DNA of 64,000 bases from Calditrichota bacterium (GTDB lineage Bacteria; Electryoneota; B3-LCP), in the NCBI GenBank assembly GCA_020051775.1, contig JAGVQJ010000069.1, positions 15,235 to 79,234 of the forward strand, read 5' to 3'. Every line of letters begins with the position of its first letter. Position 1 is the first letter of the stretch. Shown in pieces: positions 19,406 through 53,607 of the stretch. Below the pieces are notes generated by a model. That model was not told where the DNA came from. It made no database searches and worked only from the letters and a program-made list of their open reading frames with translations. The position numbers were made by a program, and so were the translations under genes.

Positions 19406-19457
19406 TTATTTTATGACAAAGGTCCTGTGATCAATGACAGAATTGAGTTTCTGGATC

Positions 19458-20147: not shown

Positions 20148-20343
20148 GTCTTTTCCACCCCTCCAACCTCCTCCTTGTTCCATTGGAATTCGGTCAGAGT
20201 TACCATCAATGGCCATTTAACCAATGGTCGTTGGCGAGTTGTCATTTGTCATTGATCCTTGAGTGCAGCAGCCCGCCCTCCACAAAGTGGCCACCTTATG
20301 GCTGACGGGCTGTATAGCTTAGTGATGGACGGAGTCGGACGAG

Positions 20344-20658: not shown

Positions 20659-21051
20659 GGGTTGTTGCTCCTAATGGCCGGTGGCGATCCTAAGTATAAT
20701 TTAGCCTTTATCCGTTGTTAATGTTAAACATCCCCCTTATGATCCCCCAAATTAAGATGATTGCAAACCAAATGCAAGAGATTTTTATGAAATTTTATAA
20801 TAGTGATCCAAACTTATTGTTTTTGATGGTTGAAGGATGAATTTTACCGGGGGTTAAAGACAATCTCATGATACGACTGGATTTTTGGGTTCTTAGTAAA
20901 AAGTTCGGACTCTTTGACCTGCTGATTTTATTACTAGGGTTTTTCATGGCTGGGATTTGTGAATAGATTTTGTAATAGATTACACTTGAAATTTGTTCGA
21001 ATTTTTCATATATTTTGTTTGGCCCATACGCAAACATTTGAGGGAGGCATA

Positions 21052-30607: not shown

Positions 30608-30644
30608 CCCTGAAAAACTTGAATTTCCACAACCTGCAGAAAGA

Positions 30645-38666: not shown

Positions 38667-39128
38667 CTAATGCTCCTCCACCAAGTCCTCCTTGATCCTC
38701 TTTACGGCTTCCCCTACGCCATCCAGGACTGCCGACGAACATCCTTCTTGTAAAGTATAGGGATCTGCAACTTCAATTCCGTAAATTGTAATTTGCTCGG
38801 GGATCATCATCCCCATCATTTTCCCCAATTTCAGCGCTTCGGAAAAGCTCAAATCATGAAGGCAGGAGGCATGGAGATCGCCACTCAGCTCCTCCACTGA
38901 CATTTTCGTCACAGTTCCCGGTTCAGTGCGTCCGGTCATAAGGGCATCAATGATTATAGCTTTATCGAAACCGGTTATTTCATCCAGAATGCGCAATCCT
39001 CCGACGGAAGCGGTGCGAATTTCCACCTCTGGTGCGACGACCCATCTCCTCAATTGTTCCGCCGCCTCGCAACCAGCGCCGTCGTCGTAGAGGATGGGAT
39101 TACCCAAGCCCAGGATGACGGTTTTCAT
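38667..39128 (-). CDS. Hydrogenase maturation endopeptidase (HycI/HoxW family)
   Basis: 153 aa. MKTVILGLGNPILYDDGAGCEAAEQL typical of the family. Last gene of the hydrogenase operon. Confidence 0.8.
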   Translation of the reverse strand: MKTVILGLGNPILYDDGAGCEAAEQLRRWVVAPEVEIRTASVGGLRILDEITGFDKAIIIDALMTGRTEPGTVTKMSVEELSGDLHASCLHDLSFSEALKLGKMMGMMIPEQITIYGIEVADPYTLQEGCSSAVLDGVGEAVKRIKEDLVEEH

Positions 39129-40603
39129 GATCGCCGGAATACCTTCACGATTTCGCCGCGCGGATTTCGCAGATTAATTTCCAGCGGCATTTGCCCCGCT
39201 AAAGTATGCGTGGCACAACCGAAGCAGGGATCGTATGCGCGGAAGGCCATCTCCACCATGTTCAGAATGCCCTCAGTGACTTCCACGCCCGGTTTGATTA
39301 CCCCCTGCGCCGCTTTTTTGATGGACATGCTGATGGCGGCATTGTTGTTGGTCGTCCCTACAATCAAGTTGGCGTCGGTAACGATGCCTTTGTTATCGGT
39401 CACGTAGTGATGGTACAAAGTTCCTCGGGGAGCTTCCACCACACCCACGCCTTCATGCGGGATGTTCTTTGGGATAGTGCGAATGTCGGTGTCGCAGACG
39501 GAAGGATCTGACATCAATTCCAGGGCATGCTCGGCGGCATAAAGAAGCTCAATGACCCGCGCCCAATGAGTCGCCAGAGTTTGATGCACGGGAGTGCGGC
39601 CGGTTTTGTCGCCGGTCAGAGTTTCATAGAATTTTTCGTATTCGGCCTGTGCCAGCGGAGTAGCCATGCCCTCGGAAGCATTTAAGCGCGATAGCGGTGT
39701 AGCCCGATATACACCCGATTGCGGGCCGTCTACCAAACCCTTCCAACCGACCTGCTTTAAGTACGGATATTTCAGATAACTATACGATTCGACATGTTCG
39801 GCGATATGCTGCAAGTAGTCCTTGGCTTCGAACTTGGCGAATTCCTTGCCATCCGGCCCTACCACGCGGATCATGCCATCGTAGAAGTTCACTTTGTTGT
39901 TCTGATCCACCATACCCATATAATAGGTCTTGTGGGTATAAGCGTCAGAGAGGATCAGATCCACATAACCTTTATTGGCGATGACGATGTCGTGGAGCAC
40001 CTTAATAGTGAACTGCCCAAATTCCACAAAATCCTTGCAGTAACCAATCCACTTTTGGCGATCTTCATCCTTTAAACCGATGGTTACACCGCCCGGAATT
40101 GAGGAGACCTGGTGAATCTTCTTACCACCCAGCGCTTGAATGATCTCCTGAGCCTGCGCCCTATGCTTGATGACCCGCTTGCCGGCATCAATACCCACCT
40201 TGGCAATCAATCCCAGGATGTTGCGCTCCGCAACCGGCGCGCTCGGGCCGCAGACAAAATCTGGCCCCGCCAGGATATAGAAGTGCACGGCATGGTCGGC
40301 GGCGAAAAAGACGCTGTACAGAAGCTCGCGCAATTTCTTGGCGGTGGGAGGAATGTCCACGCCGTAAACGGCGTCGCAGGCCTTGGCGGAGGCCAGGTGG
40401 TGAGCTTCCGGACAGACTCCGCACAATCGCGTCGTGATGCGCGGCAGTTCCTCCACCGGACGTCCCTGGCAGAATTTCTCGAAGCCGCGCAATTCCGGCA
40501 CCTGGAAATACGCGTTGGCCACACTGCCATCGTCGTTAAGGAAGATATCTATCTTACCGTGACCTTCCAGTCGCGTTATGGGATCAATCTTGATCTGCTT
40601 CAT
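39125..40603 (-). CDS. [NiFe] hydrogenase large subunit, group 3 (MvhA-like)
   Basis: 492 aa. RLEGHGKIDIF, N-terminal RLCGVCPEAH (CxxC) and C-terminal DPCFGCATH Ni-Fe ligand motifs. Confidence 0.9.
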   Translation of the reverse strand: MKQIKIDPITRLEGHGKIDIFLNDDGSVANAYFQVPELRGFEKFCQGRPVEELPRITTRLCGVCPEAHHLASAKACDAVYGVDIPPTAKKLRELLYSVFFAADHAVHFYILAGPDFVCGPSAPVAERNILGLIAKVGIDAGKRVIKHRAQAQEIIQALGGKKIHQVSSIPGGVTIGLKDEDRQKWIGYCKDFVEFGQFTIKVLHDIVIANKGYVDLILSDAYTHKTYYMGMVDQNNKVNFYDGMIRVVGPDGKEFAKFEAKDYLQHIAEHVESYSYLKYPYLKQVGWKGLVDGPQSGVYRATPLSRLNASEGMATPLAQAEYEKFYETLTGDKTGRTPVHQTLATHWARVIELLYAAEHALELMSDPSVCDTDIRTIPKNIPHEGVGVVEAPRGTLYHHYVTDNKGIVTDANLIVGTTNNNAAISMSIKKAAQGVIKPGVEVTEGILNMVEMAFRAYDPCFGCATHTLAGQMPLEINLRNPRGEIVKVFRRS

Positions 40604-41586
40604 GATTGTTTCCTCACCTCCATCTGCCCGCGCCCCAATATGGACGCCGCCAGGTTAAAGCGGTAGAATGTCCCTACTGGATCGGTTAAAGTGGCCAGTA
40701 TGCTGTCAATCTCCTCCGGTTCAGAGGCGTCAATGACTGAGGACAATGCTGAAATCATCTTCGCGCCGGGATCGAGGCAGTCCGGAGGCGGCCCGTAGCA
40801 TCCTCGACAAGGGACATTGACGGCTGTGCACTTGGCTCCGCAACCGGATCGTGTCGCCGGCCCACAGCAGACGATCCCCTGATCCATAAGGCATTCTTTT
40901 GGGTTAGGAATGATTTCATGTGGGCGGACGAACTTCTTGATCTTTTTCTCCTTCCGCTCACGGCCGCATTCATCACAACAGGTTTTATCGCCGGCGCCCA
41001 GGATGGTTCCCTTGGGCGGTAACGGTTGGCCGTTTTTTAGGATGTCAATGACCGCTACGACTACGTTCAGGATTTGATCCGATTGGGGTGGGCAGCCTGG
41101 GACATAGTAATCAACATCCACAACCTGATTCAGCGGTTTCACAGTATCCCACATGGTGGGGATTTCAATCGTCCCTTCCGGCATCTTGTTGATCGGCTGC
41201 GGGAAGATGCCGCTCTCATTCACCGTGGAAGGCGATTGTTTGTAGACGTAATCCCAGATCTGCTGCTTGGTGAAGAGGTTGGCCAAGCCAGGAATGCAAC
41301 CTTCTTGAGCGCAGGATCCGAACGCCACCAACACTTTGGACTTGGCGCGCAGCAGTTTGGCCATGTGCTCGTTCTCGGAATTACGGATGGATCCATTGAA
41401 GAGGCACAGAGTGATTTCCCCATCGGGCATAGCTTCCACGTCTTTGTATTTAAAATCCATAGCCACTGGCCACAGCACGATATCGAAGAAGTCCGCGATG
41501 GTCAGGATATGCTCTTCAACGTCCACGACGGCTATTTCACAGCCGCCACAGGACGCCGCCCAATATAAGGCCAGTTTTGGTTTCAC
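40600..41586 (-). CDS. [NiFe] hydrogenase small subunit (MvhG-like) with extra C-terminal Cys-rich extension
   Basis: 328 aa. LALYWAASCGGCEIAVVD proximal-cluster motif plus further Cys clusters (GCPP, CCDECG, CCGPATRSGCGAKC). Confidence 0.8.
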   Translation of the reverse strand: MKPKLALYWAASCGGCEIAVVDVEEHILTIADFFDIVLWPVAMDFKYKDVEAMPDGEITLCLFNGSIRNSENEHMAKLLRAKSKVLVAFGSCAQEGCIPGLANLFTKQQIWDYVYKQSPSTVNESGIFPQPINKMPEGTIEIPTMWDTVKPLNQVVDVDYYVPGCPPQSDQILNVVVAVIDILKNGQPLPPKGTILGAGDKTCCDECGRERKEKKIKKFVRPHEIIPNPKECLMDQGIVCCGPATRSGCGAKCTAVNVPCRGCYGPPPDCLDPGAKMISALSSVIDASEPEEIDSILATLTDPVGTFYRFNLAASILGRGQMEVRKQS

Positions 41587-41695
41587 AGGTTATCTCCACT
41601 TATGTCATTGCGAGGAAGCCCTTCAGGGCTAACGAAGCAATCTCCTTCGGACCAGATTGCTTCACCGGCTAAAGTCGGGTTCGCAAAGACTTGTT

Positions 41696-42136
41696 TTATG
41701 CTGCGTTATAGGTGCCTTCAAGAATGCTGTCGCTGGTCAATTTCAAGGGACCCAGGGTTCGTATGGTCTGCGTGAAATCCGCTGAAAATCGAGCCCAGCG
41801 GTCGCCCTCGCTAGCGCTGACCCAGGTCAGGCGGAAGCGATCCGGATGAATGCCCAGATCGGCCAACACCCGTTTAATTAAGTGCGCTCGGCGCAGCATT
41901 TTGAAATTGCCTTCCTGATAATGGCAATCTCCGGGATGGCAGCCCGATACGATCACGCCGTCAGCGCCCGCCTGGAAAGCTTTGAACACGAAGACCGGAT
42001 CCATTCGCCCGGTGCACATCATGCGAATAACGCGAATATTGGGTGGATAGTGCAACCTGGAAGTGCCTGCCAGGTCGGCGCCGGTGTAAGAACACCAGTT
42101 GCACAGAAATCCGGCAATCTTGGGTTCCCAGCTCAT
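41696..42136 (-). CDS. mvhD: MvhD/FlpD-type hydrogenase iron-sulfur subunit
   Basis: 146 aa. FLCNWCSYTGADLAG...CTGRMDP...VSGCHPGDCHY conserved pattern. Confidence 0.85.
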   Translation of the reverse strand: MSWEPKIAGFLCNWCSYTGADLAGTSRLHYPPNIRVIRMMCTGRMDPVFVFKAFQAGADGVIVSGCHPGDCHYQEGNFKMLRRAHLIKRVLADLGIHPDRFRLTWVSASEGDRWARFSADFTQTIRTLGPLKLTSDSILEGTYNAA

Positions 42137-43938
42137 GCTTTCGCTCCTTGAGTCGGTTTGGCGAACAGTCCGTCAATTTCCGCCATGATCTGGGCGTTGG
42201 TGAAGCCTTTACCGGTGATAGCACCGGCGGGGCAAGCGGCTACACAGGTTCCGCACCCTTTGCACAGGGCGTCGTTGACGCGGGATATCTTTTTGTCCAG
42301 AACGAATTCGATGGCCCCATAAGGGCACAGGTTATTGCACATGCGGCACCCGCCGCAGAGCTCTTCGACTACCTCGGCGCGAATCGGATCCACTTCCACA
42401 TAACCACGGCTGATTAGCTGCAGGATGCGCGCCGCTGCTCCTTGTGCCTGAGCCACGCTGTCGGGAATGTCTTTAGGGCTTTGGCAGGCGCCGGCCAGGT
42501 AAATCCCATCCGTCATGGTGCTGGTGGGGTCCAGTTTGGGGTGACGTTCCAGGAAAAAACCGTCGGGGCTGCGCGATATTGAGAAGAGGCGACCCACTTC
42601 GTCGGCGTCATGCTGCGGTTCCATGGCTGCGCAAAGCACTACCATGTCCACGGGTATTTCTCGGAACTTACCGATCAAAGTGTCTTCAGCCCGAATCAGA
42701 AGCACGCCTTCATCCCGTTGCCCCCAACCGGCTTCCACGACTTCAGCCGCCTTGCCGCGAATCATGGTCACGCCTTCATCCAGCAGGCGGTGATAGAATT
42801 CTTCGTAGCCTTTCCCGAACGCGCGCATGTCAATGTAGAATTGATAGACCGCCGCCTTGGTGCGATCCTTGATTAAATGCGCCATCTTCAGAGCGTACAT
42901 GCAGCATACTCGCGAACAATACCGGTGGTGGTTCTCATCGCGGCTGCCGATGCAGTGGATGATTCCCACCGCGCGCGGTTCTTGCCCGTTCTTTAACACG
43001 ACCTGGCTGCCGGTCGGGCCGGTGGCATTCAACATGCGCTCGAATTCCAAAGCGCTGTAAACATTATCCAAGCGCCCATACCCATACTGGGCGAATTTCT
43101 TCAGGTCAATGGTCTGGAAGCCGGTTGAAATCAGGATCTGCCCCACGTCTACTTCGATCTCTTCCGGTTTTTGATTATAATTGATGGCGCCCGGTTCGCA
43201 ATATGTGGCGCAGACGCCGCAGCCGCCGGTCTGCATCTTAATGCAGGACTCCACGTCAATGACCGGCACTTTGGGGACGGATTGCAGCGTCTTGACGTAA
43301 ATGGAAGTTGTTGGCCCGGTGGGAAATTCCAGCGGCACCCCCTTTTCCGTGCGAGTGTCATCTATGACCTTGATGTACCCGGTGGGGCAAACAGCCGCGC
43401 AAGCACCGCAGGCAATGCACGTCTTGGATTCTTCATCGTATGGAGTCGCCACGCGACGTTTGATGCCGCGCCCGTCCATAGCGATGGCGCCCACACCCAC
43501 GATCTCATCGCAGACCCGAGTACACAGTCCGCATAAGATGCAGCCTTCCGTGCCCTCGCCAAAGCGTGATTTTTCCACGCCATACTGTTTGCCCAGCTCC
43601 TGCAGGAGAGGCACGTTGGAACTGCGGCCTAACAACAGCTCGATGATCATGGCGCGCACCCGACGGATGCGGTCGTTGATCGTCTCGATGACGATTCTAT
43701 CGGACACAGGGTAGTTGCAGGCAGTCACCAGGCGGCGGCGTTTGCCTTTGATTACTTCTACGCTGCATAACCGACAGGCGCCGTAGGGCTCCATCCAATC
43801 CACGTGGCATAAGGTTGGGATCTCGATACCCAGCTTATGCGCAGCTTGCAACACAGTGGAATTCTTTTCGATTTCCACCGAGCGCCCATCAATCGTCAAA
43901 TTAACCAATTTCTTATCCCCGGAAGCTTCACTTGACAT
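42133..43938 (-). CDS. Fusion protein: HydA/NuoG-type N-terminal [2Fe-2S]+[4Fe-4S] relay domain + C-terminal half of HdrA (second inserted-ferredoxin cluster, FAD domain part 2, C-terminal ferredoxin)
   Basis: 601 aa. N-terminus LVNLTIDGRSVEI...CHVDW..GACRLCSVEV, CILCGLCTRVCDE, CIACGACAAVCPTG. Then CIKMQTGGCGVCATYCEPGAI followed by HdrA hallmarks YGYGRLDNVYSALEFERML, CIGSRDENHHRYCSRVCCMYALK, DGIYLAGACQSPKDIPDSVAQA, and 2x CxxCxxCxxxCP at the C-terminus. Confidence 0.8.
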   Translation of the reverse strand: MSSEASGDKKLVNLTIDGRSVEIEKNSTVLQAAHKLGIEIPTLCHVDWMEPYGACRLCSVEVIKGKRRRLVTACNYPVSDRIVIETINDRIRRVRAMIIELLLGRSSNVPLLQELGKQYGVEKSRFGEGTEGCILCGLCTRVCDEIVGVGAIAMDGRGIKRRVATPYDEESKTCIACGACAAVCPTGYIKVIDDTRTEKGVPLEFPTGPTTSIYVKTLQSVPKVPVIDVESCIKMQTGGCGVCATYCEPGAINYNQKPEEIEVDVGQILISTGFQTIDLKKFAQYGYGRLDNVYSALEFERMLNATGPTGSQVVLKNGQEPRAVGIIHCIGSRDENHHRYCSRVCCMYALKMAHLIKDRTKAAVYQFYIDMRAFGKGYEEFYHRLLDEGVTMIRGKAAEVVEAGWGQRDEGVLLIRAEDTLIGKFREIPVDMVVLCAAMEPQHDADEVGRLFSISRSPDGFFLERHPKLDPTSTMTDGIYLAGACQSPKDIPDSVAQAQGAAARILQLISRGYVEVDPIRAEVVEELCGGCRMCNNLCPYGAIEFVLDKKISRVNDALCKGCGTCVAACPAGAITGKGFTNAQIMAEIDGLFAKPTQGAKA

Positions 43939-44008: not shown

Positions 44009-45889
44009 TCAGGCGGCTATGTCCGCGCCAATCCTCTTGGCGAAATCCTTGAACACATCAACAGCATCAACTTTGATCACTGCATGACGTTTGCAGATGG
44101 CGGCACAAGACCCGCATTTGACGCAGGTTTCAGGATTGATGCTATGCGGCTGTTTCAAATCGCCAACGATGCAGTTTTCCACTTTGCAAACGCGTTTGCA
44201 GATGGTGCAACCATTGCATTTATCTGCTTCAATAGTGTAGACAATCAGCGATCGGCAGGCTTTGCCCGGACAGCGCAGTTCCTTGATGTGAGTCTCGTAC
44301 TCATGAGCGAAATAACGGATGGTGGACATGACCGGATTAGGCGCCGATCCGCCTAAAGCACACAGGCTGGCTTCGGCGATGATCTGTGACATCTCCTCCA
44401 GCAATTGAATATCGCTGGGATGACCCAGTCCAGAGCAGATGCGGCCCAGGATGTTAGACATACTTTTCAGGCCTTCCCTGCAGGGGACGCATTTGCCACA
44501 GGATTCTCTGGATAGGAAGTCCACGTAATACTTGGCCATGTCAATCATGCAGTCAGTCTCGTCTAAGACAACCATACCGCCTGATCCCATCATGGAACCA
44601 GCCTCGGTCAGAGCATCGAAGTCCACCGGCAGGTCAAGCTGAGCTTCCGGCAGAAATCCGCCTGAGGGGCCGCCGGTCTGCACCGACTTGAACTTCTTGC
44701 CGTCCAGGATGCCGCCGCCGATATCGAAGATCATCTTGCGCAGGGTGATACCCATAGGGACTTCCACCAAACCGGTATTGGACACTTTACCGGCCAGCGA
44801 AAATACTTTAGTGCCGGTGCTTCCACCCCAGGGATTTTCAGACACATCACCGGTGCCGATGGACGCGAACCATTTTGCTCCTCGAGTCATGATGACGGGC
44901 ACATTGGCCCAGGTTTCCACGTTGTTCAACACGGTGGGTTTGTCCCACAGCCCATGCTCGACGGTGTGGATGTATTTCGCGCGGGGTTCACCCGTGCGGC
45001 CTTCGATGGAAGCCATCAACGCAGTGCTCTCCCCGCAAACGAAGGCGCCGGCGCCGCGTCGAACAGTGATATCGAAACTGAAATCCGTACCAAGAATATT
45101 TTTGCCCAGCAGACCGAATTCACGGGCTTGCTTAATGGCCGTGTGAAAGCGTTTGACGGCCAGAGGGTATTCCTTGCGTACGTAGATATAACCGTTGCTT
45201 GATCCCACTGCATAAGCGCCGATCAGCATCCCCTCGATAACCGAATGCGGGTCGCCTTCTACGATGCTGCGATCCATGAAAGCGCCGGGATCGCCTTCGT
45301 CAGCGTTGCAGATAACGTAGCGTACACCGTCTTCGCTATGCGCCTCCCGACAGGATAACCATTTAACGCCCGTGGGGAATCCGCCGCCGCCGCGCCCTCG
45401 CAATCCTGAACGATTAATCTCTTGTATGACTTCTTCCGGCTTCATAGAGGTCAGAACCCGTGCCAGCGCCTGGTAGCCGTCACGAGCGACATAATCCTCG
45501 ATCTTCTCCGGGTCAATGATGCCGCGATTACGCATGGCGATGAGCATTTGATCGCTGAAAAAGGGGATCTGGGACATCATGGGGACGACATCCTTGGTCA
45601 CCGGCTTCTTATACATCTTCTTAACCGCCGGACGCCCTTTCAATAAATGCTCTTCGGTGATGTAGGGGACATCGCCGATTTTCACCCGCGTGTAGAAGAT
45701 TTCCCCCGGCTGGACCAGCACGGTGGGGCCGCGGCCACAGAGAGCGTTGCAACCAGTAGGAACAACCAGGATTTCATCCTGTAGGTGATGCTTTTCGATC
45801 TCCTTTTGAAAAGCCTCCAACACCAGCAGGGAATCCTTCTCAACGCAGTTCTGACCGCTGCAGACCAACACGTGAAGTCTGAATGGCAT
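44009..45889 (-). CDS. NuoF-like NAD(P)H-binding flavoprotein (HydB-type, with N-terminal Trx-like [2Fe-2S] and C-terminal 2x[4Fe-4S])
   Basis: 626 aa. GLRGRGGGGFPTGVKW FMN/NADH motifs, ESCGKCVPCREG N3 cluster, C-terminal CNGCTIC..CVKCGSC ferredoxin. Confidence 0.9.
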   Translation of the reverse strand: MPFRLHVLVCSGQNCVEKDSLLVLEAFQKEIEKHHLQDEILVVPTGCNALCGRGPTVLVQPGEIFYTRVKIGDVPYITEEHLLKGRPAVKKMYKKPVTKDVVPMMSQIPFFSDQMLIAMRNRGIIDPEKIEDYVARDGYQALARVLTSMKPEEVIQEINRSGLRGRGGGGFPTGVKWLSCREAHSEDGVRYVICNADEGDPGAFMDRSIVEGDPHSVIEGMLIGAYAVGSSNGYIYVRKEYPLAVKRFHTAIKQAREFGLLGKNILGTDFSFDITVRRGAGAFVCGESTALMASIEGRTGEPRAKYIHTVEHGLWDKPTVLNNVETWANVPVIMTRGAKWFASIGTGDVSENPWGGSTGTKVFSLAGKVSNTGLVEVPMGITLRKMIFDIGGGILDGKKFKSVQTGGPSGGFLPEAQLDLPVDFDALTEAGSMMGSGGMVVLDETDCMIDMAKYYVDFLSRESCGKCVPCREGLKSMSNILGRICSGLGHPSDIQLLEEMSQIIAEASLCALGGSAPNPVMSTIRYFAHEYETHIKELRCPGKACRSLIVYTIEADKCNGCTICKRVCKVENCIVGDLKQPHSINPETCVKCGSCAAICKRHAVIKVDAVDVFKDFAKRIGADIAA

Positions 45890-45894
45890 GACTT

Positions 45895-46281
45895 CTATCC
45901 TCTCCGTTCGCTGCCGATCGCCAGCGCGAACTCCATGATGGGTTTGCCCGCCAACAGATGCTCGCCGAAAATTTTGCGGGTCTTCTCAGGCGTTAGATCA
46001 ATGTACTTTACCGGCGTTTCATCCGCCAACTCGACGGTGGCCATCGGTTCGTGGCTGCATAATCCTCCGCAACCGCTGGTAGTCACCAGGATATCGCCCA
46101 CGCCAGCCTTCTCCACTTCTTCTAAGACCGTCTTCATAATATCGCGAGCGCCGGCGGCAATGCCGCACGTGCCCATGTGCACGGTGATCCGGGCGCGGTG
46201 CTCGCCGCCTTCGCGCAGGGCGATGTGCTTGCGAGCGTCATCCCGCATTTTCGCCAGATCTTGAATCGTCAACTTAGGCAT
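45895..46281 (-). CDS. Thioredoxin-like [2Fe-2S] ferredoxin
   Basis: 128 aa. MGTCGIAAGA...SGCGGLCSHEP pattern. Confidence 0.7.
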   Translation of the reverse strand: MPKLTIQDLAKMRDDARKHIALREGGEHRARITVHMGTCGIAAGARDIMKTVLEEVEKAGVGDILVTTSGCGGLCSHEPMATVELADETPVKYIDLTPEKTRKIFGEHLLAGKPIMEFALAIGSERRG

Positions 46282-46396: not shown

Positions 46397-46915
46397 TTAA
46401 TCATCCCGTTCCTTGGGATGATGCTTTTCCGCTTCGGCGCGGCCTCGCAGTTCTTCGATTAACCTCGGAATCCGCTCCTGAGTTATCCGACCGATAACTT
46501 CCTCGCCGTTTATGATCATCACCGGAGCCAGACCACAAACACCCAGACAGGCCGCTGTCTCAAGACCGAAAAGCTTGTCCTCGGACACCTCGCCGACCTT
46601 CATCTTCAGCTCCTCCTCAAGCCTGTCAATAATCAGCGGCGATTGCTTGACATAGCAGAGCGTACCGTTGCACATGAGCATGTTGTACTTGGCCACGCCC
46701 CTGGGCTTGGTGCTGAAGGCGTTGTAGAAGGTGGCAATCTCCAGGATTTTGGGAACCGAAACCTTCAGATCCCCGGAAACTTCTTCCAAGATCTCCCGGG
46801 GCAAGTAATTATAATCCGATTGAACGTCGTGGAGCATTTCGATTAAGCATTCCTGCTTATGCTCCCAACGATCGAGAACTTCTTGTGCTGTTACCGGCAT
46901 ATCCTCAACCTCCAC
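46397..46915 (-). CDS. NuoE-like [2Fe-2S] subunit (HydC-type)
   Basis: 172 aa. ...MLMCNGTLCYVKQS...AACLGVCGLAPVMIING matches the NuoE/HndA fold. Confidence 0.85.
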   Translation of the reverse strand: MEVEDMPVTAQEVLDRWEHKQECLIEMLHDVQSDYNYLPREILEEVSGDLKVSVPKILEIATFYNAFSTKPRGVAKYNMLMCNGTLCYVKQSPLIIDRLEEELKMKVGEVSEDKLFGLETAACLGVCGLAPVMIINGEEVIGRITQERIPRLIEELRGRAEAEKHHPKERDD

Positions 46916-46918
46916 CAG

Positions 46919-47461
46919 TTATCGTAAACCGGCTTCGCCTTGCGCCAGGGATTCTTTCAAGGCGCGAATACCGGCTGCCGAACTTAGGCTGGTATGATTT
47001 AATTTTTCTTTAAATTCCCAGGTGGTGAAAATATATTCTCTGTTTTCCACCACATGGCTAAACCGAAATTCGACCTTTGGATTGCCTATGACCAGTGTGG
47101 TGATCGTCGCTCTCAAATCACCCAGCGGTCTACGGTCTATATGGTGGTATCCCATAGTGGCCGTGATTCGGGTTCCTGCTCCGAGAATTGATTCGATCTG
47201 CAAATCCCCGCCCGATATTTGCGCTGATTCCGCCAGAAAGGGCAGACCTAATCCGACCTGCTTAATCTTCTTCTTCGTGGTCATGAAGGGATCCCTGGCC
47301 GCTTGGAGGGTTGCTTCATCCATGCCCTTGCCGTCGTCGGTAATTTCGATGATCAAGCGGTCAGCAACAGGATCTTCCACCACCCTGATTTCCAATACCG
47401 TTGCCCCTGCCGTTACAGAATTCTCGGCAACGTCCAATATATGAAGGGAAAGATCATTCAT
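46919..47461 (-). CDS. Histidine-kinase-like ATPase domain protein (HATPase_c only)
   Basis: 180 aa. IIEITDDGKGMDE...GLGLPFL...GAGTRITA G-box motifs; no HisKA or sensor domain. Confidence 0.7.
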   Translation of the reverse strand: MNDLSLHILDVAENSVTAGATVLEIRVVEDPVADRLIIEITDDGKGMDEATLQAARDPFMTTKKKIKQVGLGLPFLAESAQISGGDLQIESILGAGTRITATMGYHHIDRRPLGDLRATITTLVIGNPKVEFRFSHVVENREYIFTTWEFKEKLNHTSLSSAAGIRALKESLAQGEAGLR

Positions 47462-48183
47462 TATTTACTTAGCGCGGCTTTTAATCCTTCAAATGAAATT
47501 TCATTCGTCTCCAATTCCGTCACGCCCCGCCCAATGGCCTCCAGCTCATGCGCATCCGAAGAACACACAAAGGGAAATGACTCATATTCCGGAAAGGTTT
47601 CTCGTGCCTTGGCTACGCTAAAATTCCAACTAATTTCCAGAGCGTCCAGCTTCAGGTCCGGCGGAATGAAACCCAACTGCGTTATGATGCCGAATCCTTC
47701 CCGGTCTATATGCGCTGCGACTGCCAACCCCTCCGCGCGGTGGATCACTCGCACGATATCCTCGAGGCTCAGCGTCGTTGCCCCAATCAACAGACGCTGG
47801 GAGAAATCTGTTATGTTATCCTTTTCGTCTGCCACGATCTGCATGCCGAAGCGTTCGGGATCGTTTTGGCCGGGTAGAGCGCCGTAGACCTTGGCTTGCA
47901 CTTCCAGTGCAGCTTCCACCGCTGGAAACCACCCCAGGATGTGCACTTCCTCTCGGCTGGTGATTTCCATTCCGGGGATGACCAACACACCGGTCTTGCG
48001 CCCTGCCTTTACGGCGGCCCAGGTGTTCTCGGCGCTATTGTGATCACACACCGCAATCACTTTTAAATCTTTTTGAGCAGACGCCTGAACAATCGCCTTG
48101 GGTGACATGAGCAAGTCAGCGCAGGGTGACAGGCACGTGTGAATGTGCAGGTCAGCTCGGATGCGCTTCAGCACGGTTGGCAT
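47461..48183 (-). CDS. PHP-domain metal-dependent phosphoesterase
   Basis: 240 aa. DLHIHTCLSPCADL...VIAVCDHNS His/Asp motifs of the PHP family. Confidence 0.75.
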   Translation of the reverse strand: MPTVLKRIRADLHIHTCLSPCADLLMSPKAIVQASAQKDLKVIAVCDHNSAENTWAAVKAGRKTGVLVIPGMEITSREEVHILGWFPAVEAALEVQAKVYGALPGQNDPERFGMQIVADEKDNITDFSQRLLIGATTLSLEDIVRVIHRAEGLAVAAHIDREGFGIITQLGFIPPDLKLDALEISWNFSVAKARETFPEYESFPFVCSSDAHELEAIGRGVTELETNEISFEGLKAALSK

Positions 48184-48520
48184 TTGTCGCCAGCAACCGG
48201 TTTAACCTGAAGGCCAGCTCGAAAGCGGACAGCGGGCTACCCAAGAGCGGAATCTTTTCCGCCTCGGCCTTTTGTAGAGTCTCAGGTAGTGGCTCTCGAC
48301 CATTGGCTAATAGGATTGCAGTAAGCTCTTTTAGACTGGCCACTGCAGCGATGTTGGGATGTGCCTGGATCGTGATCCATATTTCACCCGCTCGGGTATT
48401 GGCCATCACATCGGAGAGCAGATCCCCGCAGTATCCACCCACGACGGGTCGCTCGGTCAGCTCCTTGCAACAAAAGACCTTCAGTTCCAATGAGCCGATG
48501 ATTTGTTTCAGCATAGTCAT
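48152..48520 (-). CDS. DRTGG-domain protein
   Basis: 122 aa. Similar to the second DRTGG-like ORF at 50295-50654 (GDLLSDVMA vs ADLMSDVLA; IPLLGSPLSAFE vs IPLLCTSLGMFE). Confidence 0.6.
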   Translation of the reverse strand: MTMLKQIIGSLELKVFCCKELTERPVVGGYCGDLLSDVMANTRAGEIWITIQAHPNIAAVASLKELTAILLANGREPLPETLQKAEAEKIPLLGSPLSAFELAFRLNRLLATNANRAEAHPS

Positions 48521-48556
48521 AGTAGACTCATCCCATTCGTATAATCCAAGTGTAAC

Positions 48557-49849
48557 CTATTCTTTATCGCCTTCGGCAGGCACCTTGTAAATTCTTTTTA
48601 ATTCTTCCAGGTGAGCCTGGCCGTGAAAGATGCAATCGCTCACCTCTGCCTGGCCTCGCGAAATGTCTTCGGCCAGCGTATTACAATCGGGAGCGCCACA
48701 GACTCCGCAATTGATCATGGGAAAGAGCGCCAAGGCCTGCTCCTTAACCCGCCGCCGCGCCAGAGCCTCGATTAGGTTGACTTCAGGTCCGGAATAGCTC
48801 TTGGGCTTCTGCCGCTCCTCCAGGTGAAAGAACCCTTGATGGTAGAGCTTGCGAAGCTGATCTACCTCCAAGGGCGAAGTGTGGATTTTGCGTTGTTCTA
48901 AAAGAATGACTTTGTGGTAGGCCATGTAATAATTCTCTACCGTTAAGGGGCCACCGATGCAACCGCCCCGGCAACTCCAGCATTCAGCATAATCGGTATC
49001 TTTTAATTTGCCCGATTCAATATCATCCAAAACTCGGACTATCTCATAGAGTCCGGAGACCGTAATCCAGGATTGTTCTCTTAAGGCTGATCCCGATCCC
49101 CCCAACCGCGCCCAGCGCAGTCCAGTTCCCATGGTGGGCATGGGCCAACGATAAGCATCTGGTTGTTGATTGAGGAATGCCAACAAAGGATTATAGAGGT
49201 CGCGGATCGAGACTGCGCCCGAGATCGTTTGGTGATCCGGGTCATTTTCTCCCTGAGTTACCATGGCCGGACAAGGCGTTAAATAAATAGCATTGAAATC
49301 TTTTGGGCCTTTCATCTGCCCATTGCTGCGCTTTTGGCGCAAGGCCTCTACAGCGATCACCTCCGGCCCCTTCAAGGGAATCAACTGGTTGATCAGTGAC
49401 GGGTAGCGAATCTGTATCAACCGCACAATCGCCGGGCAAAAGCTGGAGATCAGCGGTTTGGGCCCGCGGTAGCTCAGGATAAACTCCCGGATCGCCCAAC
49501 TCACCCAGTCGCAATACTGAGTGATATCTACTGCTTCTTGAAAACCAATGCGCGAAAGGGCCTGCAAAATTTCTTCGGGTGAATATTCTCGCGGGAACTG
49601 TCCCAATAACGCCGGCGAAGGTACGGCCACGCGATATTTCAATTTCTCCAACTGCACCCAAGCATCGGTTTGGGGCGCAATGGCCTGATGGGGGCATACT
49701 TGCAGACATCGGCCGCAATCCACACACCGTTCTTCGATATTAATCGCCTTCCCATTGCGAATGCGAATAGCCTGAGTGGGACAGATTCTCAGGCAGTGCA
49801 TTTTCCCATCACAAAGTTCGGGAATGATTTTCAACATCGGAGAATGCAT
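48557..49849 (-). CDS. [FeFe]-hydrogenase-like protein with degenerate H-cluster motifs (HydS-type putative sensory hydrogenase)
   Basis: 430 aa. Two N-terminal ferredoxin motifs (CLRICPTQAI, CVDCGRCLQVCPHQAI). L1 SFCPA instead of TSCCP, L2 TPCPAM, L3 ECWSCRGGCIGGP retained. Extra C-terminal CGVCGAPDC. Confidence 0.7.
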   Translation of the reverse strand: MHSPMLKIIPELCDGKMHCLRICPTQAIRIRNGKAINIEERCVDCGRCLQVCPHQAIAPQTDAWVQLEKLKYRVAVPSPALLGQFPREYSPEEILQALSRIGFQEAVDITQYCDWVSWAIREFILSYRGPKPLISSFCPAIVRLIQIRYPSLINQLIPLKGPEVIAVEALRQKRSNGQMKGPKDFNAIYLTPCPAMVTQGENDPDHQTISGAVSIRDLYNPLLAFLNQQPDAYRWPMPTMGTGLRWARLGGSGSALREQSWITVSGLYEIVRVLDDIESGKLKDTDYAECWSCRGGCIGGPLTVENYYMAYHKVILLEQRKIHTSPLEVDQLRKLYHQGFFHLEERQKPKSYSGPEVNLIEALARRRVKEQALALFPMINCGVCGAPDCNTLAEDISRGQAEVSDCIFHGQAHLEELKRIYKVPAEGDKE

Positions 49850-49855
49850 GCTTGT

Positions 49856-50308
49856 TTATGTCAAAGTGATGGAGACTCTTAAGGTGGTTCCCTGCCCTAA
49901 TTTTGAGGTTAAGTCGAACTTGTCAGCATTACGCTTGATATTGGGTAAACCCATCCCCGCGCCAAACCCTTTTTCACGCATTGCTTCGGTCGCGGTTGAC
50001 CACCCTTCCTGCATGGCTAAATTGATATCGGGAATGCCCTGCCCCTGATCTTCTACAATCAAAACTAATTCTGAAGAGTGGATTTCCAGCGTCATGGAGC
50101 CTTTACCGGCGTACATGACTATGTTCATTTCGGCTTCATAGCAGCAGATAGCCAATCGCCGGATCAGGTCCGGAGAAATCTGGATTTCTTTCAGTAAATC
50201 TTTGATTTTGGTCGAGACATTACCCGCGGTGATGAAATTCCCGCCCTGTACTTCCCAACGCTGCTTCAGGAGCGGAACCCGATCACTTTGTCGGTCATCG
50301 GGCCGCAT
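49856..50308 (-). CDS. Histidine-kinase-like ATPase domain protein (second copy)
   Basis: Start placed at MRPDDRQ (50308). ...LIVEDQGQGIPD...GFGAGMGLPNI...GQGTTLRV. Confidence 0.65.
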   Translation of the reverse strand: MRPDDRQSDRVPLLKQRWEVQGGNFITAGNVSTKIKDLLKEIQISPDLIRRLAICCYEAEMNIVMYAGKGSMTLEIHSSELVLIVEDQGQGIPDINLAMQEGWSTATEAMREKGFGAGMGLPNIKRNADKFDLTSKLGQGTTLRVSITLT

Positions 50309-50654
50309 GGCCGTCGTCCCGAATTCCGGCGCGGTATAACCGGCCGCAACATTCAAACATGCCCAAGGAGGTGCACAACAATGGGATACCCCGCTCCTCC
50401 GCTTTCGTAACCACCTCGATGTCGGGATGTTTGCCCCGCACATATATAATAGCCTTGATATCAGCGATGTCTGCCGTCGAGATGGATTGCACGGTAGCCA
50501 GGCCGGTCAGCAGCAAAGTTCCCGGATGAGAAAAGGCGAGTACATCGCTCATCAGATCGGCAGCGCCGGCGGTTTCTATCACCAGGTCATCCAGGCGCTG
50601 AGTCCCAGCAAGAGTCTGGGCTTCCAGCAATTTTTCTACTTCGCGAAGTTTCAT
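50295..50654 (-). CDS. DRTGG-domain protein (second copy)
   Basis: 119 aa. Paralogous to 48152-48520; overlaps the downstream ATPase gene start by 14 nt. Confidence 0.6.
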   Translation of the reverse strand: MKLREVEKLLEAQTLAGTQRLDDLVIETAGAADLMSDVLAFSHPGTLLLTGLATVQSISTADIADIKAIIYVRGKHPDIEVVTKAEERGIPLLCTSLGMFECCGRLYRAGIRDDGHAAR

Positions 50655-50661
50655 GGAAATT

Positions 50662-51548
50662 CTATCCGAGTAATCTTCCCGGGTCTTTGCGGGTACGATA
50701 GATAACCTGTTTTTCCCCCAGCATTATGGTGCGACGGTGGGGGATCCGCACCGAAGGACAGTTAGACCAGCACTGCCCGCAGCCGGTACAGATTTCCGGG
50801 TCCACATAACGAGCCTTCTTGTGGATTTTCACCTTGAAATTGCCAATGTAACCCGATATTCCCACCACCTCAGACCAAGTGAAGAGTTTGATATTCTTAC
50901 GATGCCCCACCGAAACCATCTTGGGGGTTAGAATGCAGGCGGAACAATCCAAAGTGGGGAATGTCTTGTCGAAGTACGCCATATTCCCGCCAATGGTCGG
51001 CTCACGATCCACCAGGTACACAGGGTATCCGGCATTAGCAATTTCCAGCGCCGCCTGAATGCCGGAAATGCCTCCTCCCAGGATCAGCGAATTGGCGTTG
51101 ATGGGGACGCGGGATACTTGCATCGGTTCGTGCAGTCGCACCCGGAAAACCGCGGCGCGTCCCAAGTCGGTAGCCTTGGCCGTGGCTTCGACCCGGTCAT
51201 TATGCACCCAGGAACAATGCTCGCGCACATTAGCCATTTGAAATAGATAGCGATTCAGTCCGGCCTCCTCGCAGGCGGTACGAAACGTTAGCTCGTGCAT
51301 TAATGGCGAACATGCTGCCACAACCACACGCGTCAATCCCAGCGTGCGGATATCCTCTTTGATCAAATCCTGGCGGTGTTGGAACACATGAATTTGTAAT
51401 CCCGCGAAACGACGACATCGGGGATTTGCCTCATGGCGTCGCGTACTTTGGTAACGTCAACCGTTGTGGATATGTTGACGCCGCAGTGGCAGATATAAAA
51501 GCCAATCTTCTCCGGGGATTTCTTGCCGTTACCATTACCGTTGCTCAT
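50662..51548 (-). pseudogene. hdrA: hdrA N-terminal half (N-domain, FAD-binding part 1, first cluster of inserted ferredoxin) interrupted by an apparent -1 frameshift near 51365-51372; gene ends inside the inserted-ferredoxin domain
   Basis: Track ORFs 51363-51548 (…GFYICHCGVNISTTVDV…DYKFMCSNTARI*) and 50662-51387 (…QDLIKEDI…NVREHCSWVH…LILGGGISGIQAALEIANAGYPVYLVDREPTIGG…CTGCGQCWSNCP) are consecutive HdrA segments in different frames. Restoring one C in the run ccgcc(c)agg gives FMCSNTAQDLIKEDI, which matches the canonical HdrA order. Confidence 0.65.
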
Positions 51549-52423
51549 ATTTTCGTCTCCAAAAGCTTGGCTACGTTTGCGGCTAAGGGTACCAGGTGTT
51601 TATCAATTCCCATTTGTGAAATACTGCTACCCATTGCCACACCCAACAGTTCGGTAAAGAATAGGGTGGGGATGGTATAGGAATGGCCATAGGATTGTTG
51701 GAGTTCATCCATGTGCATGTCCAGGTTTGCCTGGCACATGGGACAAGTTGTCAGAATGACATCGGCGCCGTTCTCCTGCGCGCAACGGAGCAGTTCATCG
51801 GTCAATTTCAAGGCGACGTCTGCAAAGGTGAACATGAGCATGCCTCCACAGCAGCGTACTTTATTGGGGTAGTAAACCGACTCAGCCCCCAGCGCTTCGA
51901 ACAGTTTGTCCATGGTGACTGGATTCTCAGCGTCGTCAAATGTGGCATAAGGGCGCACGATTTGGCAGCCATAGTACTGCGCAATTTTCAAACCCTTCAG
52001 CGATACTTTGGCTTTTTGCGCGATGGCTTCGATTCCCACGTCGTTGACCAGCACGTCTAAGGGATGACGCACCCGGCAACCTAGGTTATAGGATAAACCA
52101 ACCTGACTCAAGGCTGAATTTACATGATCGAAGAGCTGCGACTTCTCCGCCATGATTTTATGCGTCTTGGCCAATACCGTGTAACAGGCGCTGCATGGCG
52201 CCACGATGTCCAATCCAGCTTTCTCCGCCAAAGCTAAATTGCGCGCTGAAATGGCCAACGAGACCGTTTCCTTGACGGACATGTAAGCAGTCGCGCCGCA
52301 GCAATTCCAATCAACGATTTCGCTTAAACCCAATCCCAAGTCGGAAAACACCGACTTAAGTGATTTATCGTAGGAATCGGCCGAAGCCTCCAGGCTGCAG
52401 CCAGGATAGTAGGTATAATTCAT
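51545..52423 (-). CDS. hdrB: Heterodisulfide reductase subunit B (two CCG domains)
   Basis: 292 aa. YYPGCSL...NCCG and YYGCQ...RCCGG patterns. Confidence 0.85.
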   Translation of the reverse strand: MNYTYYPGCSLEASADSYDKSLKSVFSDLGLGLSEIVDWNCCGATAYMSVKETVSLAISARNLALAEKAGLDIVAPCSACYTVLAKTHKIMAEKSQLFDHVNSALSQVGLSYNLGCRVRHPLDVLVNDVGIEAIAQKAKVSLKGLKIAQYYGCQIVRPYATFDDAENPVTMDKLFEALGAESVYYPNKVRCCGGMLMFTFADVALKLTDELLRCAQENGADVILTTCPMCQANLDMHMDELQQSYGHSYTIPTLFFTELLGVAMGSSISQMGIDKHLVPLAANVAKLLETKI

Positions 52424-53142
52424 CTTTGGACTCCGCCGGAATCCGGGACCTCGCCATCAACGGCGCGATACCCGATCATTCCTTCAATATATTCCTTTTT
52501 ATGGGTTTCACGCGGTACGGCGAAAGTGTCTGCCTTGGCGATGATCTTGCGGATATCTTCGAGGGCGCGAATGCGTTTGGGTGCGATGGAAATCCTTCCC
52601 AATTTCATCAACTTGAAGCCCATTGGCGCCATCCGGAATAACCTCATGAGGTCGGTCTTCAGGTAAAACTGCATCATCAATCCCAACTCGAAGTTTCGAC
52701 CATACCGGTTTACATTATCCACGAACTTGGCAGAGAGGGCATACACGGGGAATTTATCGGGGTAAATTTTGCGCTCCATCGCGATGCGCTTCAGAGCATA
52801 TATGATATCAGTAACTTTGATGCTTGAAGGACAGCGGGAAGTGCATTGGTAGCAGGAGGCGCAAATCCAGATGGAGCGGGATTGTAATATCTTCTCGATT
52901 AATCCAGCGCGAAACAGAGCAATTAATTCACGGGGTTGAACATCCATGGCATAGGATACCGGACAGGAACCGGAGCAAGTACCACATTGAATACAGCGAT
53001 TGATCTTCTCGCCACCGGGGATGTCCATGACCTGATTAAGAAATTCCAGCCGCAGTTCGGATTCCTTGCGCGTCACCATGCCAGGTTTGCGGTCATCCAG
53101 TTGCTGTACTGTTTTCGGAGCCACAGCGGATCTCTCCTTCAT
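52420..53142 (-). CDS. hdrC: Heterodisulfide reductase subunit C
   Basis: 240 aa. CIQCGTCSGSCP and CASCYQCTSRCP [4Fe-4S] motifs. First gene of the operon. Confidence 0.85.
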   Translation of the reverse strand: MKERSAVAPKTVQQLDDRKPGMVTRKESELRLEFLNQVMDIPGGEKINRCIQCGTCSGSCPVSYAMDVQPRELIALFRAGLIEKILQSRSIWICASCYQCTSRCPSSIKVTDIIYALKRIAMERKIYPDKFPVYALSAKFVDNVNRYGRNFELGLMMQFYLKTDLMRLFRMAPMGFKLMKLGRISIAPKRIRALEDIRKIIAKADTFAVPRETHKKEYIEGMIGYRAVDGEVPDSGGVQR

Positions 53143-53231
53143 GTACCTGTTATTTAATTTTAAGAGATTATATTCATCAGTATGAGGTAAAAATGGTTGC
53201 AGATGAAACCATGTGAACTATATCGCATAAT

Positions 53232-53249
53232 ATGTTAGTAATATAACAT
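53232..53249. promoter_or_regulatory. Perfect 18-bp palindrome ATGTTA-gtaata-TAACAT, candidate operator ~90 bp upstream of hdrC
   Basis: Read directly in the AT-rich divergent intergenic region 53143-53607. Confidence 0.5.
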
Positions 53250-53346
53250 GTACTGCCGATTTTGTCAAGCATTTTCTTATTTTTTTTCAATAGGCTTAAA
53301 GTGCCGTATTGGAGCTATTCGAGAGAAGGCACTAATTGTTCATACT

Positions 53347-53373
53347 ATAACATTATAATATTAATTATGTTAT
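53347..53373. promoter_or_regulatory. Inverted repeat ATAACAT-N13-ATGTTAT (same half-site, opposite arrangement)
   Basis: Read directly in the same intergenic region. Confidence 0.4.
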
Positions 53374-53450
53374 GAAATATACAGGAATCATTAAATAATT
53401 AACAATTGTTTATATAAGAAAACACAGAGGATCTTCCCTGCTTGCAAATA

Positions 53451-53468
53451 ATGTTAATATAATAACAT
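53451..53468. promoter_or_regulatory. Second perfect palindrome ATGTTA-atataa-TAACAT, ~140 bp upstream of the UbiA-family gene
   Basis: Same 6-6-6 architecture as the site at 53232. Confidence 0.5.
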
Positions 53469-53607
53469 TATCTATTTGATAATCACTATCGAACGTCGGA
53501 AAATTTTACTGGATTTCGCTCTTCACACTCTGGAACGAGCAATTTTTTATTGTATTTCCTTTGACAAATACTTATATTTAGGTACTAAGCAAAGAGGGAA
53601 TAGGGAT

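Follow-up and report, generated by a model that had tools for sequence, protein, structure and literature searches.

A putative H2-sensing module around a group D [FeFe]-hydrogenase homologue within an Hdr-Bfu-Mvh operon of a Calditrichota bacterium

The DNA analyzed here is a 64,000-nt stretch of a Calditrichota bacterium contig (JAGVQJ010000069.1), which we call the window. By ORF (open reading frame) coordinates, 17 co-oriented genes run on its minus strand from 53142 down to 38667, with very short gaps or overlaps between them. Our subject is a module of six of these minus-strand genes, which fill positions 46919-50654 exactly. It begins with DRTGG_A, a small DRTGG-domain protein (50295..50654; Pfam DRTGG 1.2e-5, just over the gathering score), followed by HATP_A, a GHKL ATPase of the SpoIIAB/RsbW serine-kinase type (49856..50308; HATPase_c 2.1e-9, HATPase_c_2 6.7e-8). 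The ORF of HATP_A was called at 49856-50443; the start is more probably at 50308, which gives a protein of 150 aa, as in relatives. The third gene encodes HydS, a 430-aa [FeFe]-hydrogenase homologue (48557..49849), spaced 6 nt and 36 nt from its neighbors. DRTGG_B follows (48152..48520); its Pfam DRTGG match is below the cut-off (3.4e-4), and comparison with DRTGG_A identifies it as a paralogue (BLASTP 7e-14, hhalign probability 99.9%). The last two genes encode a PHP-family metal-dependent phosphoesterase (47461..48183; PHP 3.2e-7, PHP_C 2.7e-8) and HATP_B, a 180-aa GHKL ATPase of the histidine-kinase CA type (46919..47461; HATPase_c 3.4e-13). An initial annotation of this DNA had proposed a sensory hydrogenase module at this site; its coordinates, domain types, and quoted motifs were all found as described. 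Judged by sequence comparison, these genes make up the conserved module in which a group D (M2e, TamHydS-type) [FeFe] hydrogenase is accompanied by its partner genes.

Pfam matches divide HydS into three parts: a ferredoxin-like domain at the N terminus, the Fe_hyd_lg_C H-domain (5.9e-22), and, at the C terminus, the PF04060 iron-sulfur (FeS) domain (1.9e-10). The motifs SSFCPA, TPCPAMV, and AECWSCRGGCIGGP were found and align with L1, L2, and L3 of the Desulfovibrio [FeFe] hydrogenase (DdH); against solved structures, SSFCPA corresponds to TSCCP, TPCPAM to MPCxxK, and ECWSCRGGC to ExMxCxxGC. The best solved-structure matches are [FeFe] hydrogenases, with DdH at 3e-14 (PDB phmmer). The model of a homologue that is 40% identical has a predicted local distance difference test score (pLDDT) above 90 over the HydS part, and its top 50 Foldseek matches are all [FeFe] hydrogenases. 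We aligned 88 homologues to obtain residue statistics. The H-cluster ligands of hydrogenase CpI (C300, C355, C499, and C503) correspond to C138, C193, C293, and C297 of HydS and are kept in 88, 88, 87, and 88 of them, respectively. A Nar1/NARF-like identity, named beforehand as the alternative that would overturn the assignment, was rejected: in sequence and in fold alike, every best match of HydS is a bacterial [FeFe] hydrogenase, and the protein lacks none of the cluster ligands.

The position of the proton-relay cysteine, CpI C299, is variable in the family (Ala in 46, Phe in 19, also Ser and others) and is F137 in the window protein. CpI M353 is replaced by T191, and the 88 homologues divide into 67 with Thr and 21 with Ser. 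The proton-pathway residues of group A are all absent. A C-terminal Cx2Cx4Cx16C motif, formed by C381, C384, C389, and C406, is invariant (88/88). Fer4 family matches span residues 6-69, where C19, C23, C42, C45, C48, and C52 are conserved and the window sequence also has C13; the first cysteine motif is non-canonical (Cx5Cx3CP). Pfam finds no PAS domain in HydS, which ends 24 residues past C406. The published M2e signature consists of Cx2Cx4Cx16C, a non-conserved Cys299, and Met353 changed to Ser or Thr (PMC8163306), and TamHydS is the only member of this group that has been studied (PMC8163306, PMC13104023). These sequence features place HydS as a group D (M2e, TamHydS-type) [FeFe]-hydrogenase homologue. 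The initial annotation was right that the protein is a putative sensory kind of [FeFe]-hydrogenase homologue, with four H-cluster cysteines and no relay cysteine, and the profile search and residue alignment that it called for bore this out. Its comparison with the group C HydS of Thermotoga has to be dropped because HydS carries no PAS domain; it is group D/M2e and not M2f (TM1420-1422).

The group D family comprises 262 clusters at 50% identity with E values up to 1e-30. Within it, the window protein belongs to a small and distinct clade; its closest representative shares 59% identity, and the one after that 41%. This clade has a signature, Phe137/Met196/Trp291/Arg294; these residues correspond in CpI to C299, K358, M497, and the residue that follows C499. 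In a neighbor-joining tree, the Firmicute HydS proteins form one branch, and the non-Firmicute proteins, which carry the Hdr-Bfu-Mvh setting described below, form the other. A database protein identical to window 48557-49837 (P0001) is labelled RnfB by one public source, because of its C-terminal PF04060 and Fer4 domains, a misleading name for a hydrogenase homologue. Another database protein, P0388, has 4122 aa and contains about seven tandem partial copies of a HydS-like H-domain.

We then compared gene order across 80 loci from species-representative genomes and several metagenome contigs, scoring their ORFs with profiles made from the window proteins. A DRTGG gene lies upstream of hydS in 78 of the 82 loci with enough flank, and a small ATPase of the HATP_A family sits between the two in 77/82. 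The second DRTGG gene is downstream of hydS in 71/82, and three more loci have two tandem upstream DRTGG genes instead. PHP is found downstream in 63 of the 78 loci with room on the contig. That dozens of species-level genomes share this gene order is not a matter of chance. The co-occurrence of DRTGG and ATPase genes with hydS, which the initial annotation had proposed to check, is borne out. The idea that these accessory genes are companions also stands, as a conserved set; they are companions typical of M2e genes in Thermoanaerobacterales and Clostridia (PMC3561251) and not of Thermotoga, as the initial annotation had suggested. Searching the literature for a link between DRTGG and hydrogenase returned nothing relevant.

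Natural fusions show which proteins belong together. DRTGG_A and HATP_A form a single polypeptide in 8 loci and in at least 120 database clusters, including those of the cultured Thermosediminibacter, Caldanaerovirga, and Thermovenabulum; a model of one such fusion is confident (pLDDT 87.6, predicted template modelling score 0.78). HydS and DRTGG_B are fused in P0091, at the same position of an otherwise identical Hdr-Bfu-Mvh operon. Among the top 150 family representatives, 10 carry DRTGG at the C terminus of HydS, 2 have the order DRTGG-HydS, and 1 the order HATP_A-HydS. PHP is fused to HATP_B in two Vicinamibacterales loci (L030 and L033). These fusions point to three functional pairs: HydS/DRTGG_B, DRTGG_A/HATP_A, and PHP/HATP_B. 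The module had been read as duplicated DRTGG+ATPase pairs, and the DRTGG proteins are indeed paralogues; the ATPases differ from each other (26% identity over 91 aa), being distinct GHKL types and not duplicates, and the fusions define other pairs.

Both DRTGG families share invariant Asp33, Ser36, and Thr50, and K75 is invariant in DRTGG_A as well. The best structural match of the DRTGG_A family profile is AF_1212 (PDB 2IOJ, 1.3e-5), a solved DRTGG protein that does not have the DLxSDV motif of the window proteins. When the HATP_A family profile was searched against the PDB, SpoIIAB scored 4.6e-12 and the best histidine kinase 7e-5. SpoIIAB/RsbW proteins are its best matches both in sequence and in fold, and the catalytic Glu/Asn and the G-boxes are kept; its score against the SpoIIAB family model, 45 bits, is far under the cut-off of 135. 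HATP_A is therefore a predicted kinase, closest in sequence and fold to the partner-switching serine kinases SpoIIAB and RsbW. HATP_B, of the histidine-kinase CA type, has a conserved C-terminal extension and no DHp domain, and it also matches HATPase_c_3 (Pfam). The PHP protein keeps its metal ligands, with the HxH, DHN, E, H, and SDAH residues conserved. A two-component phosphorelay was considered and rejected, since both ATPases are HATPase_c-only, with no DHp, and no Response_reg match occurs in the module.

The module sits within genes for a large enzyme. Upstream are an HdrC-like subunit with a 4Fe-4S dicluster (52420..53142, minus strand, as are all that follow; Pfam Fer4_8/Fer4_17; in the position of the HdrC-like genes of loci L002, L010, and L088), an HdrB-like subunit with two CCG domains (51545..52423; Pfam CCG 1.5e-30), and an N-terminal fragment of HdrA covering approximately HdrA residues 1-272 (50662..51548; NCBIfam HdrA2 7.5e-89, profile positions 46-272). 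Directly downstream are a NuoE/HydC (BfuC)-like [2Fe-2S] subunit (46397..46915; Pfam 2Fe-2S_thioredx 6.6e-41; NCBIfam HoxE/NuoE), a 128-aa thioredoxin-like, HydD-like [2Fe-2S] ferredoxin (45895..46281), which is between NuoE and NuoF in most other loci too, and a NuoF/HydB (BfuB)-like flavoprotein with N-terminal 2Fe-2S and C-terminal 4Fe-4S domains (44009..45889; PDB 7T2R_B 1.3e-232; also matched by NCBIfam). The last of these is similar over its full length to HydB of NiFe-HydABCSL and of FeFe-HydABC (1e-232 to 1e-185; A. woodii HydB 1.3e-222).

The next gene encodes a 601-aa chimera with a HydA/NuoG-type N terminus and the C-terminal part of HdrA (42133..43938; PDB and NCBIfam matches). Its residues 12-195 resemble NuoG/HydA-type N termini with one 2Fe-2S and two 4Fe-4S clusters (PDB 9MQX_A, 2.3e-44), and residues ~207-596 match residues ~270-650 of HdrA (8RVU, 2.9e-115), the HdrA share of the chimera as a whole being residues ~240-650; NCBIfam recovers both a FeFe group A6 N terminus (2.4e-38) and HdrA2 (1.7e-127). 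The operon is completed by an MvhD/VhuD-like subunit (41696..42136; NCBIfam VhuD 8.5e-39), a group 3c-type [NiFe] hydrogenase small subunit similar to VhuG/MvhG (40600..41586; VhuG 3.6e-63), a VhuA/MvhA-like large subunit (39125..40603; VhuA 8.8e-119), and a [NiFe] hydrogenase maturation protease (38667..39128; TIGR00072 1e-28).

The HdrA sequence is thus broken around residue 270, close to where its inserted ferredoxin domain begins. The two genes for the halves are separated by 6.7 kb, and between them lie the sensor module and the NuoE/ferredoxin/NuoF core. The C-terminal two thirds of HdrA takes the place of the HydA H-domain, with HdrCB and the HdrA N-fragment on one flank and MvhDGA on the other. 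The window has the elements of a bifurcating, HydABC-type (Bfu) core, namely BfuB with extra 2Fe-2S and 4Fe-4S domains, BfuC, and a BfuA-type N terminus. All parts of MvhADG-HdrABC are present as well, but not a single-chain HdrA with a bifurcating flavin adenine dinucleotide. The initial annotation had placed the module in a [NiFe] hydrogenase operon. The VhuG/VhuA-like subunits, MvhD, and the protease downstream (38667-42136) agree with that; the setting is not simply [NiFe], because the NuoE/2Fe-2S/NuoF core sits with the module, as in hydABC operons.

The same 15- to 17-gene arrangement is present in L002-L004, L010, L011, L014, L018-L020, L024, L026, L030, L033, and L088, at least 14 genomes of Aminicenantes, Bryobacterales, Terriglobia, Solibacteraceae, Vicinamibacterales, and others. 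The window is thus not alone in having it, and misassembly was rejected as the cause of the split HdrA, since the split recurs in at least 14 independent assemblies. The published Bfu classification has no Hdr/Mvh-Bfu class; its Bam-Bfu class joins a Bfu core with an HdrA module (PMC9304861). As predicted from its domains, the split-and-fused HdrA implies an Hdr-Bfu-Mvh enzyme outside the published Bfu classes. Bacterial clusters of Hdr and group 3c genes of unknown function were noted in a genome paper (PMC5317091), and this remark is all that our literature search on the Hdr-NuoEF-Mvh arrangement found. In the close relative L002, a second set of NuoE, NuoF, and a 2Fe-2S/4Fe-4S protein (17487-21260) directly follows the BfuA-HdrA chimera, in the place taken in the window by MvhD and the [NiFe] genes; that locus ends before the gene is complete.

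The module also occurs in other settings. In Firmicutes, the same module precedes an ordinary hydABC operon, in agreement with the literature, and HATP_B lies within the structural genes, between hydC and hydD. Among 50 fully flanked loci (at least 8 kb on each side), a NuoF-type gene occurs within 10 kb in 36; in the other 14, no Bfu gene lies that close. The close relatives L001 and L005-L008 (57-60% identity) retain just DRTGG-ATPase-HydS-DRTGG. This four-gene core has the same flanks as the window operon, UbiA/DUF362 and Peptidase_S8 (with a Por_Secre_tail domain), and the Hdr, NuoEF, PHP, and [NiFe] genes are absent from that syntenic slot.

We consider, with moderate confidence, that the most likely role of the module is that of an H2- or redox-sensing device that regulates the surrounding bifurcating hydrogenase. 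Several considerations favor sensing: HydS is without the proton pathway; the module is fused solely to signalling-type proteins and can stand alone; its usual neighbor is a bifurcating hydrogenase, whose direction depends on H2 pressure; and TamHydS works slowly, has a high H2 affinity, and responds to H2 with a structural change. The last point comes from work on the Thermoanaerobacter protein, which reported high H2 affinity, low turnover, an H2-induced structural change, and unknown partners (PMC8163306, PMC13104023).

In the mechanism that we propose, binding of H2 at the H-cluster would alter the state of HydS, and this state would be passed through bound DRTGG_B to the DRTGG_A/HATP_A pair. 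The relay could be an exchange of partners, serine phosphorylation of a DRTGG protein, or both, and PHP, paired with HATP_B, would be the opposing hydrolase. As its output, the module might act on the NuoEF-type (Bfu) core after translation, or it might govern transcription by way of an unlinked factor. In the window, the regulated enzyme would be the Hdr-Bfu-Mvh complex, which uses a [NiFe] hydrogenase, and not an [FeFe] HydABC. The kinase type and the paired small proteins suggest, by analogy, a mechanism resembling partner switching. A partner-switching-like phosphorelay had been proposed from the start: the resemblance of HATP_A to such kinases stands as an analogy, and the phosphorelay part is unsupported, as HisKA/DHp, receiver, STAS, and PP2C domains are all missing. 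A module of the RsbW/SpoIIAB type requires a STAS antagonist phosphorylated on Ser, and the six genes encode none; no sigma factor gene is found among the neighbors examined of the window and its relatives. With STAS, PP2C, and sigma factor absent, partner switching is an analogy and not a membership. A fuller version holds that the six genes form a self-contained partner-switching device of a new type that responds to H2, in which DRTGG takes the role of STAS and PHP that of PP2C. Such a device could be moved between bifurcating hydrogenases of the [FeFe] and the [NiFe] kind, and here it would control an undescribed Hdr-Bfu-Mvh enzyme with two bifurcation modules on a split HdrA. We put this version forward tentatively and regard it as doubtful in its entirety.

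A number of observations weigh against a sensing role. In CpI, Lys358 makes contact with the distal CN ligand (PMC10147833). At the equivalent position, 75/88 homologues have Lys and all nine members of the window clade have Met (M196), so a normal [2Fe] subcluster is not assured. Arg294, beside Cys293, is found in 8/9 clade members and in 1 of the 79 other homologues; possibly it is a relocated positive charge. All nine clade members are one lineage, and loss of the Lys with gain of the Arg counts as a single event. Scans of the 64-kb window for the maturases HydE, HydF, and HydG, based on the HydF pattern CxHx40-58HCxxC with a P-loop and on radical-SAM motifs, returned no ORF. Across 87 loci, the same scans found only the hydG and hydE genes of L061. 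This Moorellaceae locus has hydG (215-1615, 2.6e-193) and hydE (2332-3411, 1e-111) directly upstream of its ATPase-HydS module.

The proposed signalling chain has gaps of its own. Pfam and NCBIfam find no DNA-binding, STAS, PP2C, HisKA/DHp, or receiver domain in the six-gene module. PHP is closest to nucleotide and nucleic-acid phosphoesterases (TrpH/RNase AM, 3',5'-bisphosphate nucleotidase, and EndoQ), and the known PHP protein phosphatases are not its closest relatives. In the AlphaFold model of the P0091 HydS-DRTGG fusion, the HydS part is good and the DRTGG part is unresolved (pLDDT below 50). Standalone modules have no shared output gene beside them; their neighbors are mutually unrelated. 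A 2024 survey still lists group D as functionally undefined (PMC11216029), and group D enzymes are not known to signal. Finally, the hdrA N-fragment has an apparent 1-nt deletion near 51380 (51370-51390), reading ACCGCCAGGAT where relatives imply ACCGGCCAGGAT. This yields a 61-aa piece with the CHCG cluster motif and a 241-aa ORF; the L002 protein is intact, at 292 aa. It is either a sequencing error or a real frameshift. Together with the Lys-to-Met change, it leaves the full function of the system in this organism in doubt.

Could HydS instead be a working subunit? It would then be a second H2-activating or electron-entry site docked on the Bfu core, the bacterial equivalent of hybrid [FeFe]/[NiFe] hydrogenases known from archaea, with the ATPases, DRTGG proteins, and PHP as accessory factors. 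TamHydS does interconvert H+ and H2 in both directions, if slowly (PMC8163306); archaea have hybrid [FeFe]-[NiFe] complexes that include diaphorase subunits (PMC11216029); and hydS is tightly spaced inside a structural operon, with NuoF close by in the 36 loci counted above. But the archaeal hybrids fuse the [FeFe] domain to the [NiFe] small subunit, which the window does not do, and in our data HydS is fused to DRTGG and kinase-like proteins and never to NuoE/F/G, HdrA, or [NiFe] subunits. The missing group A proton-pathway residues argue against catalysis, and both the 14 loci without NuoF and the closest core-only relatives have no hydrogenase or Bfu gene close by. We judge this explanation unlikely.

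More unlikely still is that the module, or the whole operon, is decaying in this lineage, with HydS a relic or a [4Fe-4S]-only redox sensor blind to H2. The Met at the Lys358 position throughout the clade, the hdrA frameshift, and the sister lineages that lost the enzyme genes and retain four genes only (L001 and L005-L008) would fit decay. The other 16 ORFs, however, are intact, with lengths that match relatives. Cluster cysteines and family-invariant residues are kept across the clade at 57-83% identity, which points to purifying selection; the Met co-occurs with Arg294 in 8/9 members, and a sequencing error may account for the one G that this metagenome contig lacks. Least probable is a system for assembly, repair, or protection of the FeS- and flavin-rich Bfu core, made of a GHKL chaperone, a PHP hydrolase, and a redox-reporting FeS protein: the module does accompany NuoE/NuoF whichever catalytic partner is there, HydA or HdrA/Mvh, Firmicute HATP_B lies among the structural genes, GHKL ATPases include chaperones and HATP_B matches HATPase_c_3, and L061 has its hydG and hydE next to the module, but HATP_A is specifically of the SpoIIAB/RsbW-like signalling kinase branch, standalone modules exist, and many Bfu enzymes are without the module, the Bfu survey (PMC9304861) being silent on kinase and PHP genes.

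HydS belongs to a known and poorly understood type of putative H2 sensor and stands here, with its conserved companions, in an unusual place, within a [NiFe]/Hdr operon. Group D is widespread and has one characterized member, and the newest study calls finding interaction partners critical (PMC13104023). Gene order and natural fusions nominate such partners, the DRTGG proteins and the SpoIIAB-like kinase. Nor is the putative sensor bound to [FeFe] HydABC. Its place in Acidobacteriota, Aminicenantes, and this uncultured lineage is an operon in which a split-and-fused HdrA links HdrABC, a NuoEF-type bifurcating core, and a [NiFe] Mvh hydrogenase. This Hdr-Bfu-Mvh combination, if real, matters for the question of how H2, NAD(H), ferredoxin, and a disulfide are connected in anaerobes.

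Upstream of hdrC, a strong sigma-70-like promoter (TTGACA-17-TATATT with TG) is overlapped by the palindrome ATGTTA-N6-TAACAT at 53225..53268 on the minus strand; the two are the single candidate promoter and a candidate operator of the 17-gene operon. The AT-rich region there contains palindromes based on TATGTTA/TAACATA at 53225-53256, 53347-53373, and 53448-53471, one of which overlaps the -10 element of the best promoter match. TATGTTA-N6-TAACATA is also found ~70-90 nt upstream of hdrC in L002 (6525-6544) and L003 (3693-3712), and not in L088. Window 29108-32459, 6-9 kb past the end of the operon, encodes a GAF-sigma54 activator and a Ser/Thr protein kinase that carries a PEGA domain, and both hold the same position in the core-only relatives. 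No sigma-54 promoter that would link the activator to the operon was matched upstream of hdrC.

Among known systems, the nearest is TamHydS of Thermoanaerobacter mathranii. Like window HydS, it has an N-terminal domain carrying a pair of [4Fe-4S] clusters, an H-domain, Cx2Cx4Cx16C, and no PAS domain, and the cluster cysteines are at nearly the same positions (C381 and C406 in window HydS, C379 and C404 in TamHydS). In both, the proton-relay Cys is replaced, Met353 is changed to a hydroxyl residue, and the gene is upstream of a NuoEF-type bifurcating enzyme. Window HydS is ~35-40% identical to the Firmicute (TamHydS) branch and belongs to the separate non-Firmicute clade of the neighbor-joining tree. 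Unlike TamHydS, it has Phe and not Ala at C299, Trp at M497, and Met at Lys358, and it is linked to Hdr-Bfu-[NiFe]Mvh where TamHydS is linked to [FeFe] HydABC. TmHydS (group C/M2f, Thermotoga maritima) and the HfsB-type proteins are similar in being putative sensors with an altered active-site pocket and a C-terminal four-Cys cluster, encoded beside bifurcating hydrogenase genes. Group C HydS pairs with PP2C phosphatases or with Ser/Thr or His kinases. It has a C-terminal PAS domain, whereas window HydS has none and pairs with DRTGG proteins, a SpoIIAB-like ATPase, and PHP.

A functional analogue is HoxBC-HoxJ-HoxA of Cupriavidus necator, in which a slow, inhibitor-tolerant H2-sensing [NiFe] hydrogenase controls the expression of energy-conserving hydrogenase through a kinase. 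HoxBC has an unrelated metal site and belongs to an unrelated family, and its signal runs through a PAS histidine kinase and response regulator, whereas the window module contains neither. SpoIIAB-SpoIIAA-SpoIIE, RsbW-RsbV-RsbU, and SiaB-SiaC have kinases of the same size as HATP_A, and, as in the SpoIIAB/RsbW modules, HATP_A is paired with a small protein of ~115 aa, to which it is often fused, with a hydrolase gene adjacent. Rv1364c is a precedent for a fused kinase-partner polypeptide. The window module differs in that a DRTGG protein replaces STAS, PHP replaces PP2C, and no sigma factor gene is linked. For the enzyme, two relatives stand out. NiFe-HydABCSL (NiFe-Bfu) of Acetomicrobium mobile shares the Bfu core and a [NiFe] hydrogenase, and its HydB is the best PDB match of the NuoF-like subunit; the class II benzoyl-CoA reductase of the Bam-Bfu type shares a Bfu core with an HdrA-type module (PMC9304861). 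The window is set apart from both by a split HdrA fused to a BfuA-type N terminus, by the presence of HdrBC and MvhD, and by a [NiFe] enzyme of the Mvh/Vhu type (group 3c).

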